DNA of 64,000 nucleotides. Source: Deltaproteobacteria bacterium. GTDB lineage: Bacteria > Desulfobacterota > Syntrophia > Syntrophales > UBA8958. The position numbers and the translations under genes are program-made. The DNA lies in NCBI GenBank assembly GCA_029553375.1, contig JAKPCH010000069.1, forward strand, positions 2,972 through 66,971, written 5' to 3'. The number at the start of each line of letters is the position of its first letter. The stretch's first letter is position 1. Positions 607-9,684 of the stretch are shown here, piece after piece. The notes under the pieces were generated by a model. That model made no database searches and was not told where the DNA came from. It worked only from the letters and a program-made list of their open reading frames with translations.

Positions 607-1149
607 CTACCTTGCCACGATCTCCCCCAGTCTCAGGAGCTGGGAGCTGATGTTCACGCCCTCCCTCTTGGCGGCCTTATTGTTGATTTGAAAGCGGATC
701 TTTCGCTCCCTCACGACGAGGTTTATCATAACCCCTTTTTCGGCGAAACCCTCCGTGTCCCCCATGGTCAGCTTTCCCCTCACCAGGGGGGAATGGAGGA
801 TGTCCGTGATCTGCCAGGCCTCCGAGGGGGCGATGAAGAGGACGTGGCCGTCTCTGAGATCCTTGAGATTTCCTGACCGTACGATCTTGATCGTCCGACC
901 GCCGACGGTCTTTCCCCGCAAGACCTCCAGGTCTTCGCCGAAGGGGTCTCTCCCCAAAACGGCCAAGACCAGCTCGTTCCCCGGTCTCTTGTCCGGGGGC
1001 AGACTGACGAACTTCAAGATGTTGTAGATCACGGCGGCCTTGAGTCGATACTCGGGGACCCTTCTGTCCTCACCGCGGACCGCCGGGACCGACGCCAGGA
1101 TGAAGGCGATGACCAGCGATATCTTGAGAGACCTTCGGAAGTCGACCAT
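607..1149 (-). CDS. YfiR-like periplasmic protein (DUF4154 family)
   Basis: ORF 607..1320 trimmed to ATG 1149 (MVDFRRSLKISLVIAFILASVPAVRG looks like a signal peptide). DUF4154-type motifs are present: LKAAVIYNILKFVSLP, LAVLGRDPFG, HVLFIAPSE, FQINNKAAKREGVNISSQLLRL. The alternative start at 1167 cannot be excluded. Confidence 0.8.
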   Translation of the reverse strand: MVDFRRSLKISLVIAFILASVPAVRGEDRRVPEYRLKAAVIYNILKFVSLPPDKRPGNELVLAVLGRDPFGEDLEVLRGKTVGGRTIKIVRSGNLKDLRDGHVLFIAPSEAWQITDILHSPLVRGKLTMGDTEGFAEKGVMINLVVRERKIRFQINNKAAKREGVNISSQLLRLGEIVAR

Positions 1150-1166
1150 TGATTTACCCGCCCCCA

Positions 1167-3182
1167 TCAGTATCGCCACGTGAGCTTTAGTCTTAACGTG
1201 CGGCCGTCCTGGGCGATGGTTTCCTGGCGATGCTCCGCCGAGGCGGGGTCCTCGTATCGCCTGTTGAAGGCGTCGTAGAGGCTCAACGAGGCCTCGAGGC
1301 GCGGCGCCCAGTTGAGGCAAAGGAGGGTGAGATTGGTGACGAAATAGGCCGCCGCGTCCCGGTCGCGTCCGTTGAGACGACTGTCGACGTAGAGTTCTTC
1401 GAGGGAGAATTGTAAAGCGTCCCGGAAAAGGGGGAACTGAAGGTGGAACTTCACGAGGTGCCGGGGCGAGGCCACGACGGTCTTTTCGGACGTCTTGTCC
1501 TTAGATTCCTGGTAGGTGTAGGCCAGACGGGCGCGGAGGGTCTTTCCCCAACGCTTTTCGACCTCGGCGGAGGCGCCCGTCGTCTCTTGTTTCTCGACGT
1601 TCCTGAAGACGAGGAGACCGTCCCTTTCGTCTTCGATGAGGACGATCAGGTCGTCGATGGCGTTGTGGAACACCGAGGCCGCGACCCTGAGATGGTGAGG
1701 GAACGAGTGTTCCAGGACCGCCTCGTAGGTGCTTATCTTCTCCGCCTTGAGATCGGGACTGGCCTTGGTCGTCTTACCCCCGTCGTTGTAATACAGCTCG
1801 TAGACGTTCGGCGCCCGAAAGGCGGTTCCGTAGAGGATCTTCAAGGAGGTGTCCTTGAGGAAGGAATAGACGAGACCGAGGCGGGGGTTGAAGGTGTTGC
1901 CGAAGGTCCCGTAGCGATCGAAACGGGCCCCCAGAGAGAGGATCAGATCCCGGAAGGGCCTGATATTTCCCGACAGATAGGCGGCCCACTGGTAGGTCCT
2001 TCGGATATCGTCGAGGTTGCTCTGATAGGGATTGTCGTCCCAGTTGTACTGGTCCTGGCGGATGTAGCCGTTGTACTCCATGCCGGCCACCCACTCGTGC
2101 CTGTTCATGACCTTGCCCGTCAATTGGGCCTCGGCTCCCCACCATTCGCCCACGGAGAGATCGCGGTTCGTGTAGCCCGAAAACACGTAGTCCCCCTCGT
2201 AGCGGTAGTGATCGTACCAGAGGCGGGTGGTGAGATTCGCCGCACCCAGGTCGCGGGCGAAGCGCAGATCGACGTAACCACGCTCGTCGGCGCTCTTCGT
2301 GCCGGGTGCCCCGAAGACGGTGTCCCACGGCGCCGTGGGGATGTCTTTTTCCCGCCTCGCCATGGCCCCCTGGAGGTTGAAGGGGCCCCAGGCGGCGTTG
2401 ACGAAGATCTGGCCGCTGGCGTCGGCGTCGTTTCCCCGGACGACGCCGTGATTGTTCGCCTGGTTGTCGAACTCGGGGAAGTACAGTTCGTCCTTGCCGC
2501 GGCGGCGGTATTTGGAGGCCGAGACGACGATTTCCGACCCTTCGCCGATGGGTATCCCCGTTGTCAGGCGGCCCTTGAAGGTATCTTCGGTGCCCGCCTC
2601 CCCCGAGACCTCGAACCTGCCGACTTCCGTCGCCCTCTTGGTCTTGACGTTGATGACGCCGAGGAAGGCGTTCGTCCCGTAGAGGGAGGAACCGGGGCTG
2701 CGGATCACCTCTATGCGGTCGATGAGATCGACATCGACGGGGAAATCGGTGCCGATGCTGGCCTGGTCGTAAACGGCGTCGTTGATACGGTGGCCGTCCA
2801 CCATGAGGAGATAGCGGGTGTTGTAATCCCCCGGCCGTGAAAAGCCCCGGCCCCCCAGGTAGGAGTAGTTGCGGTCGTAACTGACGTAGAAGTCTCGCAC
2901 CCCCGCGAGGATATCCGCCAGGGTTCTGTATCCGAAGGCCCGGATGTCGGCGGAGGTGACGACGGACACGGAGGAGGGGGCCTCGAAGACGGGCTGCCGG
3001 AAGCGGGAGGCCGTCGTGACCGTTTCCACCTCCAGCCTGAGGAGTTCCTCGAGGGGCATCTTGGTAAGATCCCCCGCGGGGACTTTCTCCCCCTCGGCCA
3101 ACCCCGGGCAAGGCGCGAGGGTGAGGGAGAGGAAAAGCAACGCCGGAAAGATGATCCCCCGGTAACGGTCCTTCACAGTCAC
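1167..3182 (-). CDS. TonB-dependent outer-membrane receptor
   Basis: ORF 1167..3611 trimmed to GTG 3182, with GAAGGAGG 5 nt upstream. It has a signal peptide (IIFPALLFLSLTLAPCPGLAEG) and a plug domain (VTSADIRAFGYRTLADILAGVRD, IEVIRSPGSSLYGTNAFLGVINVKTK). A long beta-barrel follows, ending in the aromatic residue of LKLTWRY. Confidence 0.85.
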   Translation of the reverse strand: MTVKDRYRGIIFPALLFLSLTLAPCPGLAEGEKVPAGDLTKMPLEELLRLEVETVTTASRFRQPVFEAPSSVSVVTSADIRAFGYRTLADILAGVRDFYVSYDRNYSYLGGRGFSRPGDYNTRYLLMVDGHRINDAVYDQASIGTDFPVDVDLIDRIEVIRSPGSSLYGTNAFLGVINVKTKRATEVGRFEVSGEAGTEDTFKGRLTTGIPIGEGSEIVVSASKYRRRGKDELYFPEFDNQANNHGVVRGNDADASGQIFVNAAWGPFNLQGAMARREKDIPTAPWDTVFGAPGTKSADERGYVDLRFARDLGAANLTTRLWYDHYRYEGDYVFSGYTNRDLSVGEWWGAEAQLTGKVMNRHEWVAGMEYNGYIRQDQYNWDDNPYQSNLDDIRRTYQWAAYLSGNIRPFRDLILSLGARFDRYGTFGNTFNPRLGLVYSFLKDTSLKILYGTAFRAPNVYELYYNDGGKTTKASPDLKAEKISTYEAVLEHSFPHHLRVAASVFHNAIDDLIVLIEDERDGLLVFRNVEKQETTGASAEVEKRWGKTLRARLAYTYQESKDKTSEKTVVASPRHLVKFHLQFPLFRDALQFSLEELYVDSRLNGRDRDAAAYFVTNLTLLCLNWAPRLEASLSLYDAFNRRYEDPASAEHRQETIAQDGRTLRLKLTWRY

Positions 3183-3193
3183 CAACCCCTCCT

Positions 3194-4570
3194 TCAAAGG
3201 ACGTGGACGGCCTCGCCGCACAAAGCCGCCGCCGCCTCCCAGAAGGCCTCCGACAGGGTGGGGTGGGGATGGACGACCGACGCGGCTTCCCTCGCCGTCA
3301 ACTTGAGGGTCACGACCATCGAAGCGGCGGCGGCGAGTTCCGTGGCGTGGGGTCCCAGGATGTGAACACCCACGATCCGCCCCCCTTCCCCCTCGGCGAC
3401 GACCTTCACGAAACCTTCCGTCTCGTTCAAGATCAGGGCCTTGCCGTTGGCCCGCAGGGGAAAGCGGGCCGTCCGGACATGGCCGTGACGTTCCTTTGCC
3501 GCCTCTTCCGACAGGCCCACGGAGGCGATCTCCGGGTTTGTGTAGACGCAGAGGGGAACGGCCCTCCCCGTCATGGCCTCGTCGCCGCCCAGGGCGTTTG
3601 CGGCGGCGCACGCCCCCTGAGCCAGGCCGGCGTGGGCCAGCATGGGGGGGCCCGTAACGTCACCGGCGGCATAGACACCCCTGACGGGCGTCTCCATCCG
3701 TTCGTCCACGACGATGGCCCCGTCCCTCGTGGGCAAAAAGAGTCTTTCGATCCCCAGACCCTCGTGTGCCGGCCTGCGCCCCACGGCGATGAGGACCTTC
3801 TCGGCCGTGACGGCGACCTCCCCCTCCTTGTCCCTTTCGTAGCGGACAACGGGCCGACCGGCCCGCTCCCCGACCTCCTTCACCATCGCCCCCGTCACGA
3901 CCCTCATGCCGTCGCGGACGAGGCACCTCTGGAAGAGGGACGATAGATCGCTATCCAGTCCCGCCAGGAGGCTGGGCAGCCCCTCGATGATCGTCGTCTC
4001 CACGCCGAGACCGTGGAAGAACTGGGCGAACTCGACGCCGACGACGCCGCCGCCGATGACGATGACGCTTTGGGGGAGACGGTCCAGGGCCAGGGCCGCG
4101 TCGCTGTCCATGACGGCGCCCCCTATGGAGCCCGGGGTGGGAAGGCGGCCCGGGACGGACCCCGTCGCGATGACGATCCGCTCCCCACAGATGATTTCAC
4201 CCGTCTCGACGATTTCGACGGACCGCTCGTCCCGGAGGGTTGCCGTACCCCCGACGAGCTTGACGCCGCCGGCCTTGACGAGGGCCCCCAGACCCCTGGC
4301 GAGGCGTTTGACGACATCGTCCTTGCGCCTCATGACGGCCCCCAGATCGATCCCCTCGAAGGAGGCCTTGATCCCGAAGGTCCCGGCGCGTCTTATCTCC
4401 CTGACGGCCTCCGCCGTCCGGAGGAGACACTTGGTGGGTATGCAGCCCCTGTTCAGACAGGTCCCCCCCAGGGCGTCCTTTTCGATGAGGGTCACCTGGC
4501 CCCCCAGGCGGGCCGCCCGGAGGGCCGCCGCGTACCCCGCCACGCCCCCGCCGATGACGATGAGCTTCAT
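3194..4570 (-). CDS. lpdA: Dihydrolipoyl dehydrogenase (pyridine nucleotide-disulfide oxidoreductase, class I)
   Basis: ORF 3194..5395 trimmed to ATG 4570 (MKLIVIGGGVAGYAAA is the FAD GxGxxG). Also present are the redox-active disulfide GGTCLNRGCIPTK, a second Rossmann motif VIGGGVVGVEFA and the C-terminal HPHPTLSE. There is an ATGA overlap with the upstream gene's stop. Confidence 0.85.
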   Translation of the reverse strand: MKLIVIGGGVAGYAAALRAARLGGQVTLIEKDALGGTCLNRGCIPTKCLLRTAEAVREIRRAGTFGIKASFEGIDLGAVMRRKDDVVKRLARGLGALVKAGGVKLVGGTATLRDERSVEIVETGEIICGERIVIATGSVPGRLPTPGSIGGAVMDSDAALALDRLPQSVIVIGGGVVGVEFAQFFHGLGVETTIIEGLPSLLAGLDSDLSSLFQRCLVRDGMRVVTGAMVKEVGERAGRPVVRYERDKEGEVAVTAEKVLIAVGRRPAHEGLGIERLFLPTRDGAIVVDERMETPVRGVYAAGDVTGPPMLAHAGLAQGACAAANALGGDEAMTGRAVPLCVYTNPEIASVGLSEEAAKERHGHVRTARFPLRANGKALILNETEGFVKVVAEGEGGRIVGVHILGPHATELAAAASMVVTLKLTAREAASVVHPHPTLSEAFWEAAAALCGEAVHVL

Positions 4571-6714
4571 GACCAAAGACCCCAGCGACGGATGACGAAC
4601 AGGATCGCCAAGATCAAAAGGACCACGAAGAGCAGGATCTTGAGCCAGGGGATCTTCTTGTCCGCGAAGGGGTCCTCCAGGGAGGTCAGGGAGCCCTTGG
4701 GGAGGGAGGCGGTCTTGGTGAGGGAGGCCCCGAAGGTGACGTTGATCTTCACGCGGGAGTTGATGGCCCAGCCGCAGGCGTCGAGGATGGGGCCGAGGTT
4801 GCGCTGGCGCAGCTTGAGCCAGGCCATGACCATGGCCGGCCCGGAGATGAGGAGCACGACGGCGGCGAGGGCCAGGGGCATCTGCCACCAGCTGAGGCGG
4901 AAGAACCCCGTGACGACGGAGGTGACGGCCGTGCCGATGGCTCCGAAGGCGAGGCCGATGGCGGCGAAGACGCCGGCGAACTTGGCGATGTCGAAGGGAG
5001 GCGCGGCAGGGGGCTTGGCCGCCTCCATCTTCGGCGCCGCCTCGACCTTCTGGGCGGCCTGTTCCATGACGGCCCGGTCCCGGGCGGCCGCCCTCTTGGC
5101 GATCATTTCCTGGATCATCTTCGTCAGGCGCTTGTAGGGGCTCCAGAAGGCCTGCCGGATACTGATGGGGTGCTCGATGATCTTGACGATCGTCGCGTCC
5201 CAGTCCTTTCCCTCGCGGTCGTAGAAGACGCCGTTCCTCCCTACCATGAGGTAGTCGGAATCTCCGGCCGTGAAGGCGGCGGCGATGGTCATCCGCTCCT
5301 CTCCCCCCCGGCGCTTGCATTCGCAGTAGGCGAGGTAGATGCGGCTCAGGGCGGCCAGGGTGCCGTGGGCGGCCATGTCCTCGACCTTGACGCACAGTTC
5401 GCAGCCGCGGCCGTCGAGGTAGAGGGTCCCGGCCTGGAAGACGGCTTTTTTCTTGCGGGTGTAGAAGTCGCTGAAGGAGACGAAGTTGTTCAGGAGCGTC
5501 AGGAGGTCGCGGTGATAGCGGGCGAGGCGGTCCAAAAGGACGAGGGCGTCGAATTCCCCGGCCCGCTCTTGGTCCCTTGCGATGAGGGATGCGAGGTAAG
5601 ACCTGTTCTCCTCGACGGCGATCTGCTGCAGTCGCTCCTTGCCGAGGGGCTCGACGAGGGCGCCCCCCTTGCGGGAGAGCCAGTCGCGGTAGGGACCGAG
5701 CTTGTCCTTCAGAAGGCGCCAGTCTCCTTCCCCCAAGACCTTGGCGTCGCCGAGGAGGGGCCGGACCGCCTTCTGCCGGAAGTTCTCCATGGCATCGCGC
5801 CAGGCCGGGTTGAGGGAGGCGTCGAGGGGCAAAAGACCGTCGGGGTTTACGGCGGCCAGGGGCAGGGAGGCGGCCTCCGGGAGGGACACCGAGAGGTTCT
5901 TGTCGGCCAGGCTGAGGTATTCCTGTTCCTGCCCCTTGAGGATCTCCAGGGCCCGACTATCGAAGGCCGCCAGGCGACAGCGGGCGAAAAAGTCGTCGAT
6001 CTTCTCCTCCACCGCGGCAAGGGCGGCGGCCGCCGCGGCCGTGTCATCGCCCAGGGTCAGCAAGTCCGCGGCCTTCTCTTCCCCTTCCTGGAGCCAGGCG
6101 AGATAGGCGGCGGCCTCGGCGAAGAACAGTGCGAGCTTTTCCCCCGAGATGCCCGGTTTGCCGCTCCGGTCCGTCTCGCCGCCCACGGCGGAGATGATGT
6201 CCCCGACGACGGCCTTCATCTGAGGCCCGTCGCAGGCCTCTTCCGTAATGATCCCGTCGCCGTTGAATGGCTCTTGGGAGAGGACCGCCTCCGCTGCGGA
6301 CGTGTCGGCGACGCTGATGAAGGCCTCTCCCCCCCGGCCCCGGTTTTCGAGGATCCGCCGGGCGGCGTTCAAGATCAAGGCGCCCTCGGGGTGCTCCTCG
6401 TTGATGGCCGCCAGGGGAAGGGCGTCGTTGCCCTTGGTCAGCTCGTCGGGGTCCTTGAGGAGCTCGCAGGCCCACCGCACCGCCGCGAGGATTTCGGGAA
6501 CCCGTATGCGGCCGTCCCCGTCCGTATCGATGAGGGAGGCCGTCTTGGGATCGAACTCGATACCCGTCACGGGACAGCTGAGGGCCACCCAGAGCTTCTG
6601 GTCGAGGAGGGGCAGATGCAGCAGGTCCTCCCCCGAGGCGATCCTCACCTGGTCGAAGCCGCCCGCCCGGAAGAACTTCCAGCGGTGGCCGCTGTTCGTC
6701 TTCTCATTCTTCAT
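4567..6714 (-). CDS. Large EF-hand-containing, C-terminally membrane-anchored protein of unknown function
   Basis: 715-aa ORF. It carries a canonical 12-residue EF-hand loop, DTDGDGRIRVPE (aa 63-74, nt 6493-6528). About 560 aa are soluble, followed by an Ala/Pro-rich linker. Three C-terminal hydrophobic helices follow (FAGVFAAIGLAFGAIGTAVTSVV, MPLALAAVVLLISGPAMVMAW, WLKILLFVVLLILAILFVI). I recognise no characterised family. Confidence 0.75.
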   Translation of the reverse strand: MKNEKTNSGHRWKFFRAGGFDQVRIASGEDLLHLPLLDQKLWVALSCPVTGIEFDPKTASLIDTDGDGRIRVPEILAAVRWACELLKDPDELTKGNDALPLAAINEEHPEGALILNAARRILENRGRGGEAFISVADTSAAEAVLSQEPFNGDGIITEEACDGPQMKAVVGDIISAVGGETDRSGKPGISGEKLALFFAEAAAYLAWLQEGEEKAADLLTLGDDTAAAAAALAAVEEKIDDFFARCRLAAFDSRALEILKGQEQEYLSLADKNLSVSLPEAASLPLAAVNPDGLLPLDASLNPAWRDAMENFRQKAVRPLLGDAKVLGEGDWRLLKDKLGPYRDWLSRKGGALVEPLGKERLQQIAVEENRSYLASLIARDQERAGEFDALVLLDRLARYHRDLLTLLNNFVSFSDFYTRKKKAVFQAGTLYLDGRGCELCVKVEDMAAHGTLAALSRIYLAYCECKRRGGEERMTIAAAFTAGDSDYLMVGRNGVFYDREGKDWDATIVKIIEHPISIRQAFWSPYKRLTKMIQEMIAKRAAARDRAVMEQAAQKVEAAPKMEAAKPPAAPPFDIAKFAGVFAAIGLAFGAIGTAVTSVVTGFFRLSWWQMPLALAAVVLLISGPAMVMAWLKLRQRNLGPILDACGWAINSRVKINVTFGASLTKTASLPKGSLTSLEDPFADKKIPWLKILLFVVLLILAILFVIRRWGLWS

Positions 6715-7141
6715 CGTTTCGTCCCTCCTTCAACGTCGTCCTTTCCTTGATGTAGGCCAGGCCCTGGAAGAGGGCCACCTTCTCGCCGAGGTCGTCCCGG
6801 ACCTCCACATGGTACGTGGCGGTCCTGCGCCCCCGGGAGGTTTCGACGGCCTCGGCGAGGAGAACCGCGCCGCGCGACGCCGTGACGAAAGAAACGGAGG
6901 CGTTGAGGGCCACGGCGGTCCGGCCGTGGGAGTTCGCCGCCGCGGCGAAGGCGATGTCGGCCAGGGTGAAGATGGCGCCGCCGTGGATGATGCCCACGCC
7001 GTTGCGGTGCCTCTCCTCGACGACGAGGCGGGTCCTGGCCCGCCCCGGCCCGATCTCGAGGAGCTCGACGCCGACGAAACGGGCGAAAAGGTCCTTGCCG
7101 AGGAGTTCCCAGGCCCGGGGGAAATCGAGGGGCTTCTCCAT
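6704..7141 (-). CDS. PaaI/YdiI-type hotdog-fold acyl-CoA thioesterase
   Basis: ORF 6704..7498 trimmed to ATG 7141 (MEKPLDFPRAWELLG). The signature GIIHGGAIFTLADIAFAAAA is present. Its 3' end overlaps the next gene's start by 11 nt, and it begins 1 nt after the upstream stop. Confidence 0.8.
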   Translation of the reverse strand: MEKPLDFPRAWELLGKDLFARFVGVELLEIGPGRARTRLVVEERHRNGVGIIHGGAIFTLADIAFAAAANSHGRTAVALNASVSFVTASRGAVLLAEAVETSRGRRTATYHVEVRDDLGEKVALFQGLAYIKERTTLKEGRNDEE

Positions 7142-7142
7142 G

Positions 7143-7997
7143 TCAGTCCCCCGGCGCCGGGATGCCCGCCTCGCAGGGGACCCCGGTCTGGCAGAGACCG
7201 CAGCCGTAGCTGGCGAAACCATAACGCGCCTCCGCGTTGGGGGCCGCCGTCTCGAAGAGATACCGACGGCACTTTTCCTTGTCGTGACCGTCGTCCGTGA
7301 CGGCGCCGACGGGGCAGCGCGCGGCGCACTTCCGGCACTTCTCCCCGCTGTAAAACAGACAGTACTGGCGGCAGGAGGTGTAGGGGCGCGGCGTCGGCTC
7401 GACGGCGAGGGCGGCGACGACGGAGCCGCAGCGCATGGCCTTGCCCCGGCGGGTGATGAGGCCGTCACATAGGCCGAAGGTGCCCAGACCGGAGACATAG
7501 GCGGCGTGCCGTTCCGACCAGTTGGAGGCGAAACCGTATTTCTCGGCCTCCTGCCACGCCCAGAGAGGCGAGAGGGTCGGCGCGACGGCCATGATGCCCC
7601 GCGCGGCGAGGAGGGAGACGACGTGTCTCGCCAGGGCGTGATTACAGTCCTCGCCGAAGTTCCGCGCCCGGGACCAGCGTTCCGCGGGGAGATCCTTCTG
7701 CGCGGCGTTGTCCGACCGCGTGGCCGCCGTATGGGGCAGGACCCAGCTGATCACCGTAAGCCTCCCCGGGGCCAAGGCGACGCCGGGGAAGGTGAGGGAC
7801 ATGATCTCCTCAGGTGTCCAGTAGAAGGGCCCGATATCCTCCTTGAAAAAGGGGTACAGGGGGTCGTCGCCCCGGGAAAAGCCCACGAGGGGCTGATCCC
7901 AGGCCCTTTCGTTTTCTTCGTTCCGGAGGGAGTTTTCCGGGGAGGAGGCGATGAATTCCGTGATGATGTTCTCGAGCCACGACGCGTCGCTCCTCAT
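7143..7997 (-). CDS. 4Fe-4S protein related to epoxyqueuosine reductase (QueG) / reductive-dehalogenase-like family
   Basis: ORF 7143..8048 trimmed to ATG 7997 (MRSDASWLENI), with GGAGG upstream. The Cys clusters CRQYCLFYSGEKCRKCAARCP and YGCGLCQTGVPC fit a double-cluster ferredoxin domain. Family assignment is by motif only. Confidence 0.65.
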   Translation of the reverse strand: MRSDASWLENIITEFIASSPENSLRNEENERAWDQPLVGFSRGDDPLYPFFKEDIGPFYWTPEEIMSLTFPGVALAPGRLTVISWVLPHTAATRSDNAAQKDLPAERWSRARNFGEDCNHALARHVVSLLAARGIMAVAPTLSPLWAWQEAEKYGFASNWSERHAAYVSGLGTFGLCDGLITRRGKAMRCGSVVAALAVEPTPRPYTSCRQYCLFYSGEKCRKCAARCPVGAVTDDGHDKEKCRRYLFETAAPNAEARYGFASYGCGLCQTGVPCEAGIPAPGD

Positions 7998-7998
7998 C

Positions 7999-8892
7999 TC
8001 ACCGCCTCCGTTCGAAGAGGCCGTCTTCGTTGACGAAGACCTCGCCACGCCCCTGGAGCGCCTCGAGGTGCTTCTTCATGATGGCCCTCTCTCCGAACTC
8101 GAAGAAGGCCTTCGGTTCCCGCGCCTTGCCGTAGACGATCCCGGCCCGGACGATGTCTTCCAGGGAGTGCGGGGTTTTCAGGAACTCCAGGAGTTTTTCC
8201 TCCCGGGTGAAGATCACCCGGCGGTAGCGTTGCCAGTCCTCCGGTTCCGGGGGCGCGAAGACCCCCCGCTCGTGTCCCGTGAGAAAGACGCGGGCCTCCA
8301 TGGAGGCGAGTTTATCCAGACTCTCCAGGGTCTGGGAGATGGAGGAGTGCCGGTCGCCGTACCAGGGCCCGAAGGGGGTAAGGTCGTAGTCCCCCATGAA
8401 GACCACCCCCAGCTCGGGGAAGTGGAAGGCCAGGTGGCCCGGCGTGTGGCCGGGCGTGGGGATGATTTCCACCCCAAGACCGCCGGGGAGGAGAGAGGGG
8501 CCGGCCTGGAGGAAACCCGCCACGGGGCGGGGCCGGTAATGGAACGTCTCTACGATGGCCCGCCGCCAGTAGTCCCGGTGATCGCCCTCCAGGCCGTACC
8601 AGTCCAGCAGGACCTCGACGTCGGTGAAGGGCGGTTGATCCTCCGGGGCGATGAAGAGGGGCAAATCATCGAAGAGCTCGAGATAGGTGAAGTGGTCCTC
8701 GTGCCAGTGGCTGAGCCAGACGGCCTTCACCTCCTCGGTGTTCCGGATCTCCCGCAGACGTTCAAAATTGCTCGCCGGGTCGATGATTATCCCGGGCCCT
8801 TCAAGGAAGAGGCTGTGACAATATGGGTATTTGCCTCCCCTGTTTCCCGGGATGAACCAGACGGGGCCGAAATGCCTTTCCCCTTCGATCAT
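7999..8892 (-). CDS. MBL-fold metallo-hydrolase
   Basis: 297-aa ORF with the HxHxDH motif (SHWHEDH) and a later TPGHTPGH. It is the first gene of the minus-strand operon. Confidence 0.8.
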   Translation of the reverse strand: MIEGERHFGPVWFIPGNRGGKYPYCHSLFLEGPGIIIDPASNFERLREIRNTEEVKAVWLSHWHEDHFTYLELFDDLPLFIAPEDQPPFTDVEVLLDWYGLEGDHRDYWRRAIVETFHYRPRPVAGFLQAGPSLLPGGLGVEIIPTPGHTPGHLAFHFPELGVVFMGDYDLTPFGPWYGDRHSSISQTLESLDKLASMEARVFLTGHERGVFAPPEPEDWQRYRRVIFTREEKLLEFLKTPHSLEDIVRAGIVYGKAREPKAFFEFGERAIMKKHLEALQGRGEVFVNEDGLFERRR

Positions 8893-8962
8893 TGATAATG
8901 AGCCTCTGTTAATTGTGCATATATGAAGGGTAGGGACCTGTCAAGGTCATTGCGGTTCTTTC

Positions 8963-8992
8963 TTGACCATCAAGGGGCATATGACCTATAGT
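8963..8992 (+). promoter_or_regulatory. Sigma70-like promoter candidate for adk
   Basis: TTGACC (8963-8968), an 18-nt spacer and TATAGT (8987-8992), located 39 nt before the adk ATG. GGGAGG is present as RBS. Confidence 0.35.
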
Positions 8993-9030
8993 CGCCGGCC
9001 TGACGGAAAAGAACAAAAGGGAGGTTTTAT

Positions 9031-9684
9031 ATGAGAATCATTCTGTTGGGCGCCCCGGGGGCCGGCAAGGGGACGGTGGCGAAGTTGCTCAGCCAGATCG
9101 ACGGCTCTGTGCATATTTCGACGGGGGACATCCTGCGGGCGGCCATCAAGGAAGGCACCGAGCTGGGCATGAAGGCCAAGGCGTACATGGAGAGGGGGGA
9201 TCTCGTCCCCGATGAGCTCGTCATGCTCATGATGGAGGACCGGCTGCGCCGGCCCGATACCGACAAGGGTTTCATCCTCGACGGGTTCCCCCGGACGATA
9301 CCCCAGGCCGAGGCCCTGGAGGGGCTCTTGAAGCGTCTGGGCAAGGAACTCGATTTCGTGGCCAATCTCGAGGTGGAGAGGGAGGTCATCATCGACCGCC
9401 TGACGACGAGGCGGACGTGCTCCAACCCCGACTGTCAGGAGATCTACAACGTCAAGAGCAATCCCCCCCTACCGGACGGCACCTGTCGCAAGTGCGGCAG
9501 CCCCACGGTCCAGCGGGAGGACGAGACGGAAGAGGCCATCGCCAACCGCCTGGCGACCTACCAGGCCAAGACGGCGCCCCTCATCGATTACTATGCCCGA
9601 AAGGGCCTCCTGAAGAACTACAGGTCCGTAAGCAGCGCCGAGACCGTCGAGGCCGTCAAGAGGGATCTGACCCTCCGTCCGTGA
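9031..9684 (+). CDS. adk: Adenylate kinase (long form with Zn-finger lid)
   Basis: MRIILLGAPGAGKGT P-loop. The lid carries the cysteines CSNPDCQ...CRKCG. Confidence 0.95.
   Translation: MRIILLGAPGAGKGTVAKLLSQIDGSVHISTGDILRAAIKEGTELGMKAKAYMERGDLVPDELVMLMMEDRLRRPDTDKGFILDGFPRTIPQAEALEGLLKRLGKELDFVANLEVEREVIIDRLTTRRTCSNPDCQEIYNVKSNPPLPDGTCRKCGSPTVQREDETEEAIANRLATYQAKTAPLIDYYARKGLLKNYRSVSSAETVEAVKRDLTLRP

Follow-up and report, generated by a model that had tools for sequence, protein, structure and literature searches.

Rearrangement or the loss of intervening DNA can bring functionally unrelated genes together in one operon. A gene whose product works with partners encoded elsewhere is also familiar: in Escherichia coli, the gene for dihydrolipoyl dehydrogenase (Lpd) lies in the aceEF-lpd operon, away from gcvTHP, and its product serves the glycine-cleavage system in trans. 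Here we analysed a 64,000-nucleotide (nt) stretch, hereafter the window, of a Deltaproteobacteria bacterium of the order Syntrophales (GenBank assembly GCA_029553375.1, contig JAKPCH010000069.1, positions 2,972 to 66,971). Near its start, five minus-strand genes encoding a metallo-β-lactamase (MBL)-fold hydrolase, a QueG-like iron-sulfur (Fe-S) protein, a PaaI-type thioesterase, a 715-amino-acid (aa) membrane protein and an Lpd follow one another almost without gaps. Literature searches turned up nothing specific to these families in Syntrophales. The string is real, and comparison with relatives suggests that it is probably a clade-specific composite of separate jobs, recently assembled by local rearrangement, and not a conserved pathway.

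Eight minus-strand genes form one tightly packed string

Gene models were taken from the open reading frame (ORF) listing with its translations and cross-checked with a codon-usage gene caller trained on the source genome (G000), which returned the same minus-strand genes. The features concerned are:

8892-7999, minus strand: MBL-fold zinc hydrolase, 297 aa (PF00753, HxHxDH motif); first gene of the string
7997-7143, minus strand: QueG/RdhA-superfamily Fe-S protein, 284 aa (weak Fer4_16/QueG sequence match, fold match)
7141-6704, minus strand: PaaI-type hotdog-fold acyl-CoA thioesterase, 145 aa (PF03061, TIGR00369)
6714-4567, minus strand: membrane-anchored protein with an EF-hand loop, 715 aa (no Pfam or NCBIfam family)
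4570-3194, minus strand: Lpd (E3 or L-protein), 458 aa (TIGR01350)
3182 (or 3176) to 1167, minus strand: TonB-dependent receptor (PF07715, Plug, and PF00593, barrel)
1149-607, minus strand: YfiR/HmsC-like DUF4154 protein (PF13689, E = 2.3e-38)
590-1, minus strand: CHASE8 sensor protein, N-terminal part, running off the window (PF17152, E = 7e-15)
8893-9030: divergent intergenic region of 138 nt between the MBL gene (minus strand) and adk (plus strand, starting at 9031)

From the MBL gene through the CHASE8 gene, successive spacings are +1, +1, -11, -4 (an ATGA overlap), +11, +17 and +16 nt. GGAGG-type Shine-Dalgarno-like motifs precede the QueG-like, 715-aa and receptor genes; the Lpd start overlaps the preceding stop codon in the ATGA and has no such motif. 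The source genome is of Syntrophales type and, at 2.4 Mb, is smaller than those of the neighbouring genus (2.7-4.1 Mb), and 46% of its same-strand neighbours, as called by codon usage, lie within 20 nt of each other. Runs of eight such tight genes occur just three times genome-wide, the string from MBL to CHASE8 being one of them; its tight packing is therefore real and beyond chance. All eight genes lie on one strand, separated by gaps too short for promoters or terminators, and on this spacing they very probably form one transcription unit.

The initial annotation had described five co-directional minus-strand genes with the first four of these spacings, which the ORF listing and the gene caller both reproduce. 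The tight coupling that it drew from them is borne out, with a single transcript from the divergent adk/MBL region probable, and its five family labels are upheld, including the RdhA/QueG fold (by structure search) and the conserved EF-hand-type loop. It also had the string running on into the TonB-dependent receptor. The 11-nt gap agrees with this, but the receptor heads a separate conserved module that does not stand at this place in the closest relative.

The five-gene block is confined to a small clade

We surveyed synteny in 60 other Syntrophales species genomes and in metagenomic contigs. The full block, preceded by adk, recurred only on one metagenomic contig, L033, from the closest relative, and was thus not found adjacent in several independent lineages, as a conserved cluster would be. 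Between L033 and the window, identity is 91% for Re-citrate synthase, 65% for UvrD, 68% for the MBL protein, 74% for the QueG-like protein, 72% for the thioesterase and 72% for the 715-aa protein. A further contig, L106, from a Syntrophales metagenome-assembled genome (MAG), carries PCMT downstream of Lpd, which in turn follows the final 55 residues of a 715-aa homologue.

Elsewhere in the 60 genomes, the orthologues of the five genes are dispersed. The MBL gene has orthologues in 17/17 other genomes of the family, and the order Re-citrate synthase/UvrD/adk <-> MBL, with MBL divergent to adk, is conserved in at least 11 genomes; in relatives a convergent gene follows MBL. The MBL gene is native to this adk-adjacent position. 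QueG-like orthologues were found in 37 genomes, on contigs other than those of the 715-aa gene and with no PaaI gene beside them; in relatives the gene stands alone or behind an opposite-strand DUF362 gene. The latter arrangement is seen in 6 of the 12 genomes of the neighbouring genus, where MBL is followed by an opposite-strand DUF362-Fer4 gene and then by the QueG-like gene, which has a divergent upstream region to itself. In the source genome the DUF362 orthologue lies on a different contig, and the 1-nt MBL/QueG-like junction can be explained by its relocation. Orthologues of the thioesterase (51-62% identity) have varied neighbours in unrelated contexts. Homologues of the 715-aa protein occur in 15 of the 60 genomes, each behind its own intergenic region, and in these 15 never adjoin Lpd, the QueG-like gene or the MBL orthologue.

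A foreign origin of the block was rejected: for the five genes, GC content and GC content at third codon positions (GC3) lie within the 40th to 87th percentiles of all genes in the genome, and with so ordinary a composition horizontal transfer is not indicated. A defence system was likewise rejected, with no PADLOC match for any of the five proteins.

The initial annotation had read the tight packing as a sign of shared function, perhaps in an unrecognised pathway. Synteny sustains the block itself, which is present on the closest relative's contig, but not beyond a small clade, outside which the genes are dispersed. The step from packing to shared function fails on that dispersal, on junctions that derive from different ancestral contexts and on an Lpd whose partner lies elsewhere.

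A conserved divergent promoter region precedes the string

Within the 138-nt region upstream of the MBL gene, the adk promoter TTGACC-N18-TATAGT (8963-8992, plus strand) is invariant in 8 aligned intergenic regions from several families (the window plus L033, L083, L085, L089, L090, L091 and L094). On the minus strand, a candidate promoter for the operon combines a perfect -35 element (TTGACA, 8944-8939) with a weak, AT-rich -10 element downstream, and a TTGACA before MBL is present in most relatives. Given the conserved adk <-> MBL backbone, the invariant adk promoter and the recurrent TTGACA, the MBL gene is taken to be the native gene of the site and its promoter the likely driver of the string. 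A consensus scan of the minus strand between 900 and 9600 returned no sigma-70-like consensus sites. In the neighbouring genus, only ~6-9 nt separate the TATAGT of the MBL promoter from the ATG, pointing to leaderless MBL mRNAs in that genus. No Rfam RNA family was found anywhere in the window at gathering thresholds, hence no cobalamin riboswitch precedes the receptor.

These observations suggest how the string may have arisen. Relocation of the DUF362 gene would have joined the MBL and QueG-like genes, and the PaaI, 715-aa and Lpd genes would have been joined behind the QueG-like gene in the common ancestor of the source genome and L033. The source genome would have lost E1/E2 and a gcv-linked lpd; its one remaining Lpd would act in trans in glycine cleavage and may additionally serve a second GcvH-like lipoyl carrier. 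Transcription would start at the conserved MBL promoter in the adk/MBL divergent region and read through the terminator-less junctions, expressing products with separate jobs: a putative zinc hydrolase, a QueG/RdhA-type reductase, an acyl-CoA thioesterase, a membrane-anchored EF-hand-loop protein and an Lpd.

The single Lpd of the genome most likely serves glycine cleavage

The window Lpd scores 491.4 bits against TIGR01350 (cut-off 408.8) and has intact motifs: the redox-active CxxxxC disulfide in GGTCLNRGCIPTK (CLNRGC), the GxGxxG motifs for FAD and NAD (VIGGGVAGY and VIGGGVVGVE) and, near the C terminus, the His-Glu motif HPHPTLSE. It is the only Lpd-class gene in the source genome (a single tblastn match). 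No lipoyl partner genes were found on the window's contig and no E2 in the source genome. Another contig of the source genome, C74, carries the operon gcvT-gcvH-gcvPA-(DUF7309/DUF6930)-gcvPB with no lpd of its own. Since the genome holds a gcv operon without lpd, no E2 and no other Lpd, the window Lpd is, judging by gene content, most likely the glycine-cleavage L-protein acting in trans. Its earlier description as an orphan is right for the contig, which has no lipoyl partner, but not for the genome, where the gcv operon lacking an L-protein lies on another contig.

Relatives fill this role differently. In G001, G002 and G005, an Lpd match that is 35-36% identical to the window's lies just downstream of gcvP. 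The arrangement in G001 and G002 is gcvT-H-PA-PB-lipA-lpd, with the gcvPB-lipA-lpd order confirmed and that Lpd above the TIGR01350 cut-off. Orthologues of the window Lpd in other Syntrophales (45-54% identity) are instead the E3 of E1alpha/E1beta/E2/E3 operons. The Lpds of the source genome, L033 and L106 form one clade with 100/98 support on long branches, and no database protein is more than 55% identical to the window Lpd. Independent recruitment of Lpd in the source genome and in L033, whose Lpds are only 54% identical, is rejected by the tree: both fall in the one well-supported clade and are therefore taken as orthologues on long branches. Such branches are compatible with a constraint that relaxed or changed once E2 had been lost, but do not prove it.

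The arrangement resembles that of the E. coli glycine-cleavage system in that there is a single Lpd, with motifs intact, while gcvT, gcvH and gcvP lie elsewhere without an L-protein of their own. It differs in that the Lpd gene here is not accompanied by E1/E2, which the genome lacks, and stands behind an unrelated membrane-protein gene; moreover, the Lpd used by relatives in the window's family is a different paralogue, encoded inside gcvTHP-lipA-lpd. At this locus the L-protein role can be seen to move between Lpd paralogues within a single family.

In the gcv operon of C74 (~47.9-55.5 kb; L073:6901-14503), a DUF7309/DUF6930 protein and a 106-aa ORF are encoded between gcvPA and gcvPB. A 604-aa KamA-family radical SAM protein follows; the operon lacks the terminal lipA-lpd pair of G001 and G002. 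At ~3.3-5.6 kb of the same contig (L074:3308-5600), the second GcvH-like carrier adjoins an LplA/LipB-type ligase and a class I/II aminotransferase; this carrier may have a role outside glycine cleavage.

The 715-aa protein belongs to a large family without recurrent partners

The 715-aa protein matched no family in Pfam or NCBIfam, although its own family comprises 2811 clusters at 50% identity (E<=1e-3). Matches in the Atlas, all of them unnamed clusters, assign the family to Pseudomonadota, Bacteroidota, Verrucomicrobiota and Thermodesulfobacteriota. An N-terminal signal peptide is absent. Residues 63-74 form a canonical 12-residue loop, DxDxDGxIxxxE (DTDGDGRIRVPE). Across 37 diverse homologues, D63 and D67 of this loop never vary, and D65 and R71 are kept in at least 90%. 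There is no Pfam EF-hand match, and fold matches to EF-hand proteins are weak (CIB1, for example, at E=1.3). The AlphaFold2 model has a predicted local distance difference test (pLDDT) score of 86.6; it shows a helical hairpin at ~576-636, and its final helix spans 690-714. Foldseek of the full-length model against the PDB gave nothing at E<=0.001, and a wide VIA-align search gave single-helix or hairpin matches only (Z <=6.2).

As a distant synteny control, we used a contig scan seeded with the 715-aa protein, in which all matches were Bacteroidales. Among these 46 loci, 45 contain none of the four partner genes; relatives of the PaaI, QueG-like and MBL genes were found in none of the 46, and in the 45 no neighbour family recurred in more than 5 loci. 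On three further metagenomic contigs the 715-aa homologue has unrelated neighbours, while a fourth contig ends before any neighbour is reached. An unrelated small MBL-fold gene lies directly upstream of the homologue in two genomes from another family of Syntrophales.

Two loci of this family stand out. In a Bacteroidaceae MAG (L131:10367-10885), the sole such case among the 46 loci, the 715-aa homologue is followed, after ~270 nt, by a co-directional Lpd-like gene, which is 37% identical over 173 aa and cut by the contig end. In G030 (L029:8112-12054), the homologue is split into ORFs of 340 aa and 352 aa, the first part containing one TAG, and a 549-aa opposite-strand gene lies between them; the homologue was probably disrupted by an insertion.

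Alternative explanations of the string

Likeness to the mixed operons described at the outset lies in a gene order conserved only within a narrow clade, in ancestral neighbourhoods that differ and in a compact genome (2.4 Mb). The string differs from them in being unusually long and tight (eight genes, gaps <=17 nt) and in a 715-aa/Lpd pair that is kept in three lineages. Several findings weigh against reading it as a composite. L033 keeps the complete tight block despite substantial divergence (UvrD 65%, MBL 68%, 715-aa protein 72%), the 715-aa/Lpd adjacency occurs on a third Syntrophales contig (L106), and the string is among the three tightest runs in the genome. The separate long-branch clade of the three Lpds could mean a changed role and not just loss of E2. 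In addition, several relatives have gcvP without an Lpd detectable at E<=1e-60, so that the need for Lpd in glycine cleavage is itself only presumed.

The adjacency of the last two genes raises the idea that the 715-aa protein and Lpd work as a pair, for instance with the former as a membrane-anchored, Ca-responsive scaffold that places or regulates a disulfide reductase, the other genes being passengers. The two are adjacent in all three lineages that have this Lpd clade, with an ATGA overlap in the window, a 3-nt gap in L033 and, in L106, an Lpd start just past the homologue's last codons; the clade lies on long branches apart from the Lpds that act as E3 of a complex, and the one Bacteroidales locus of 46 with an Lpd-like gene ~270 nt downstream points the same way. 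We nevertheless hold such a pair to be unlikely. One ancestral event may explain all three lineages, as they are related; the 715-aa family otherwise stands alone (in 15 relatives, 45/46 Bacteroidales loci and the three other contigs) and has no recurrent partner; and loss of E2 also predicts long Lpd branches. Developed further, the pair would be a membrane-tethered, possibly Ca-responsive disulfide-reductase unit and, in a stronger version, the whole string would be a pathway specific to the clade, in which this unit is joined with two thioester-type hydrolases and a B12/Fe-S reductase, a proposal that we consider distinctly doubtful. It is very unlikely that the five products act in one undescribed pathway, such as thioester, epoxide or disulfide handling through the MBL and PaaI hydrolases, the B12/Fe-S reductase and a membrane-located disulfide reductase, even though the coupling is tight, L033 keeps the block, the MBL protein (weakly glyoxalase-II-like) and PaaI are both of thioester-hydrolase types, and in another family a different MBL-fold gene overlaps the PaaI orthologue by 4 nt. 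Outside the clade of the source genome and L033, no pair but 715-aa/Lpd is adjacent, every gene has widespread orthologues living apart, removal of an opposite-strand gene explains the MBL/QueG-like junction, and an obvious partner for Lpd is encoded on another contig. The string could also comprise several transcription units, with promoters inside upstream coding regions, for instance for the 715-aa or the receptor gene. Separate upstream regions precede the QueG-like gene, the 715-aa gene and the receptor module in relatives, and the 715-aa and receptor genes here follow strong GGAGG motifs; however, neither promoters nor terminators would fit into intergenic gaps of <=11 nt, and the consensus scan of 900-9600 gave no sigma-70-like minus-strand site, which makes this arrangement highly improbable.

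A composite of separate jobs on one transcript is consequently the reading that we favour, and it carries a caution: here translational coupling and 1-nt gaps mark no pathway, and an Lpd that looks partnerless has a plain partner elsewhere. The string also holds members of two very large uncharacterized families, a short QueG/RdhA-fold enzyme and the ~700-aa EF-hand-loop membrane protein. The latter family has no Pfam model and no solved fold and is spread over Thermodesulfobacteriota, Bacteroidota and other phyla; the former is called 'epoxyqueuosine reductase' by annotation pipelines although the source genome has QueH.

The Fe-S protein has the QueG/RdhA fold but is not QueG

By sequence, the 284-aa protein resembles QueG weakly (E~3e-3). 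Against the model for true QueG (TIGR00276) it scores 20.2 bits, with a cut-off of 200, and matches only model positions 129-244. The chain ends at residue 284, directly after the second cluster motif, whereas solved QueG chains have 370-437 residues. QueG identity is rejected on the low score, the missing C-terminal domain and the presence of QueH and QueA in the genome.

The structural model (pLDDT 93.8) returned QueG, NpRdhA and PceA as its top 44 Foldseek matches, at probability 1.0, with CblC next. Eight cysteines, in two [4Fe-4S] motifs, are invariant in 22 homologues. By its predicted fold, the protein is a member of the QueG/RdhA/CblC structural superfamily, and a cobalamin cofactor is predicted from the fold. 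The core fold and the two-[4Fe-4S] domain are shared with QueG (PDB 5d08, 5t8y and 5d6s), NpRdhA (4ras/6zy0) and PceA (4ur0) at a template-modelling (TM) score of ~0.5. The protein differs from them in its length, 284 aa as against 370-440 aa or more, and lacks the C-terminal domain of QueG. More than 7800 homologues are automatically named epoxyqueuosine reductase. The source genome has QueA and a strong QueH match, and because QueH is present the protein is not needed for queuosine and the label is doubtful here.

On a Syntrophales-like metagenomic contig (L107:4468-6888), a monocistronic QueG-like gene is transcribed away from a gene for a MiaB/RimO-type radical SAM methylthiotransferase.

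The receptor module was probably added in one lineage

The receptor, DUF4154 and CHASE8 genes are conserved as a unit in other Syntrophales families; in G032 the three products are 53%, 42% and 38% identical, respectively, to those of the window. None of the other 17 genomes of the family yielded the module, which for this reason looks like a lineage-specific acquisition. In L033, a PCMT methyltransferase gene follows the five-gene block in place of the receptor module. From this distribution, the module appears to be an independent unit added behind Lpd in the lineage of the source genome only.

The MBL hydrolase and the thioesterase fall short of specific assignments

The MBL protein matches PF00753 with E=6.6e-18 (65.8 bits, cut-off 22.7), its HxHxDH metal motif is intact (SHWHEDHF), and its closest solved relative is 2zo4. 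Glyoxalase-II-like NCBIfam models match weakly, far under their cut-offs; the hydroxyacylglutathione hydrolase GloB (TIGR03413) was rejected at 41.6 bits (cut-off 200.8).

The thioesterase matches PF03061 (E=8.6e-14, 52.1 bits, cut-off 20.6) and scores 70.8 bits against TIGR00369, above the cut-off of 36.6. The PaaI equivalog (TIGR02286) was rejected at 105.5 bits, just under its cut-off of 118.9. The protein shares with PaaI the hotdog fold and equal length and passes the general domain model; it differs in falling below the equivalog cut-off and in having no paa genes beside it. In G023 (L167:3157-4454), a NUDIX gene is followed by an MBL-fold gene that overlaps the PaaI orthologue (51% identical) by 4 nt. 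That MBL-fold gene has no BLAST match to the window MBL, and a second MBL-fold gene is convergent just downstream.

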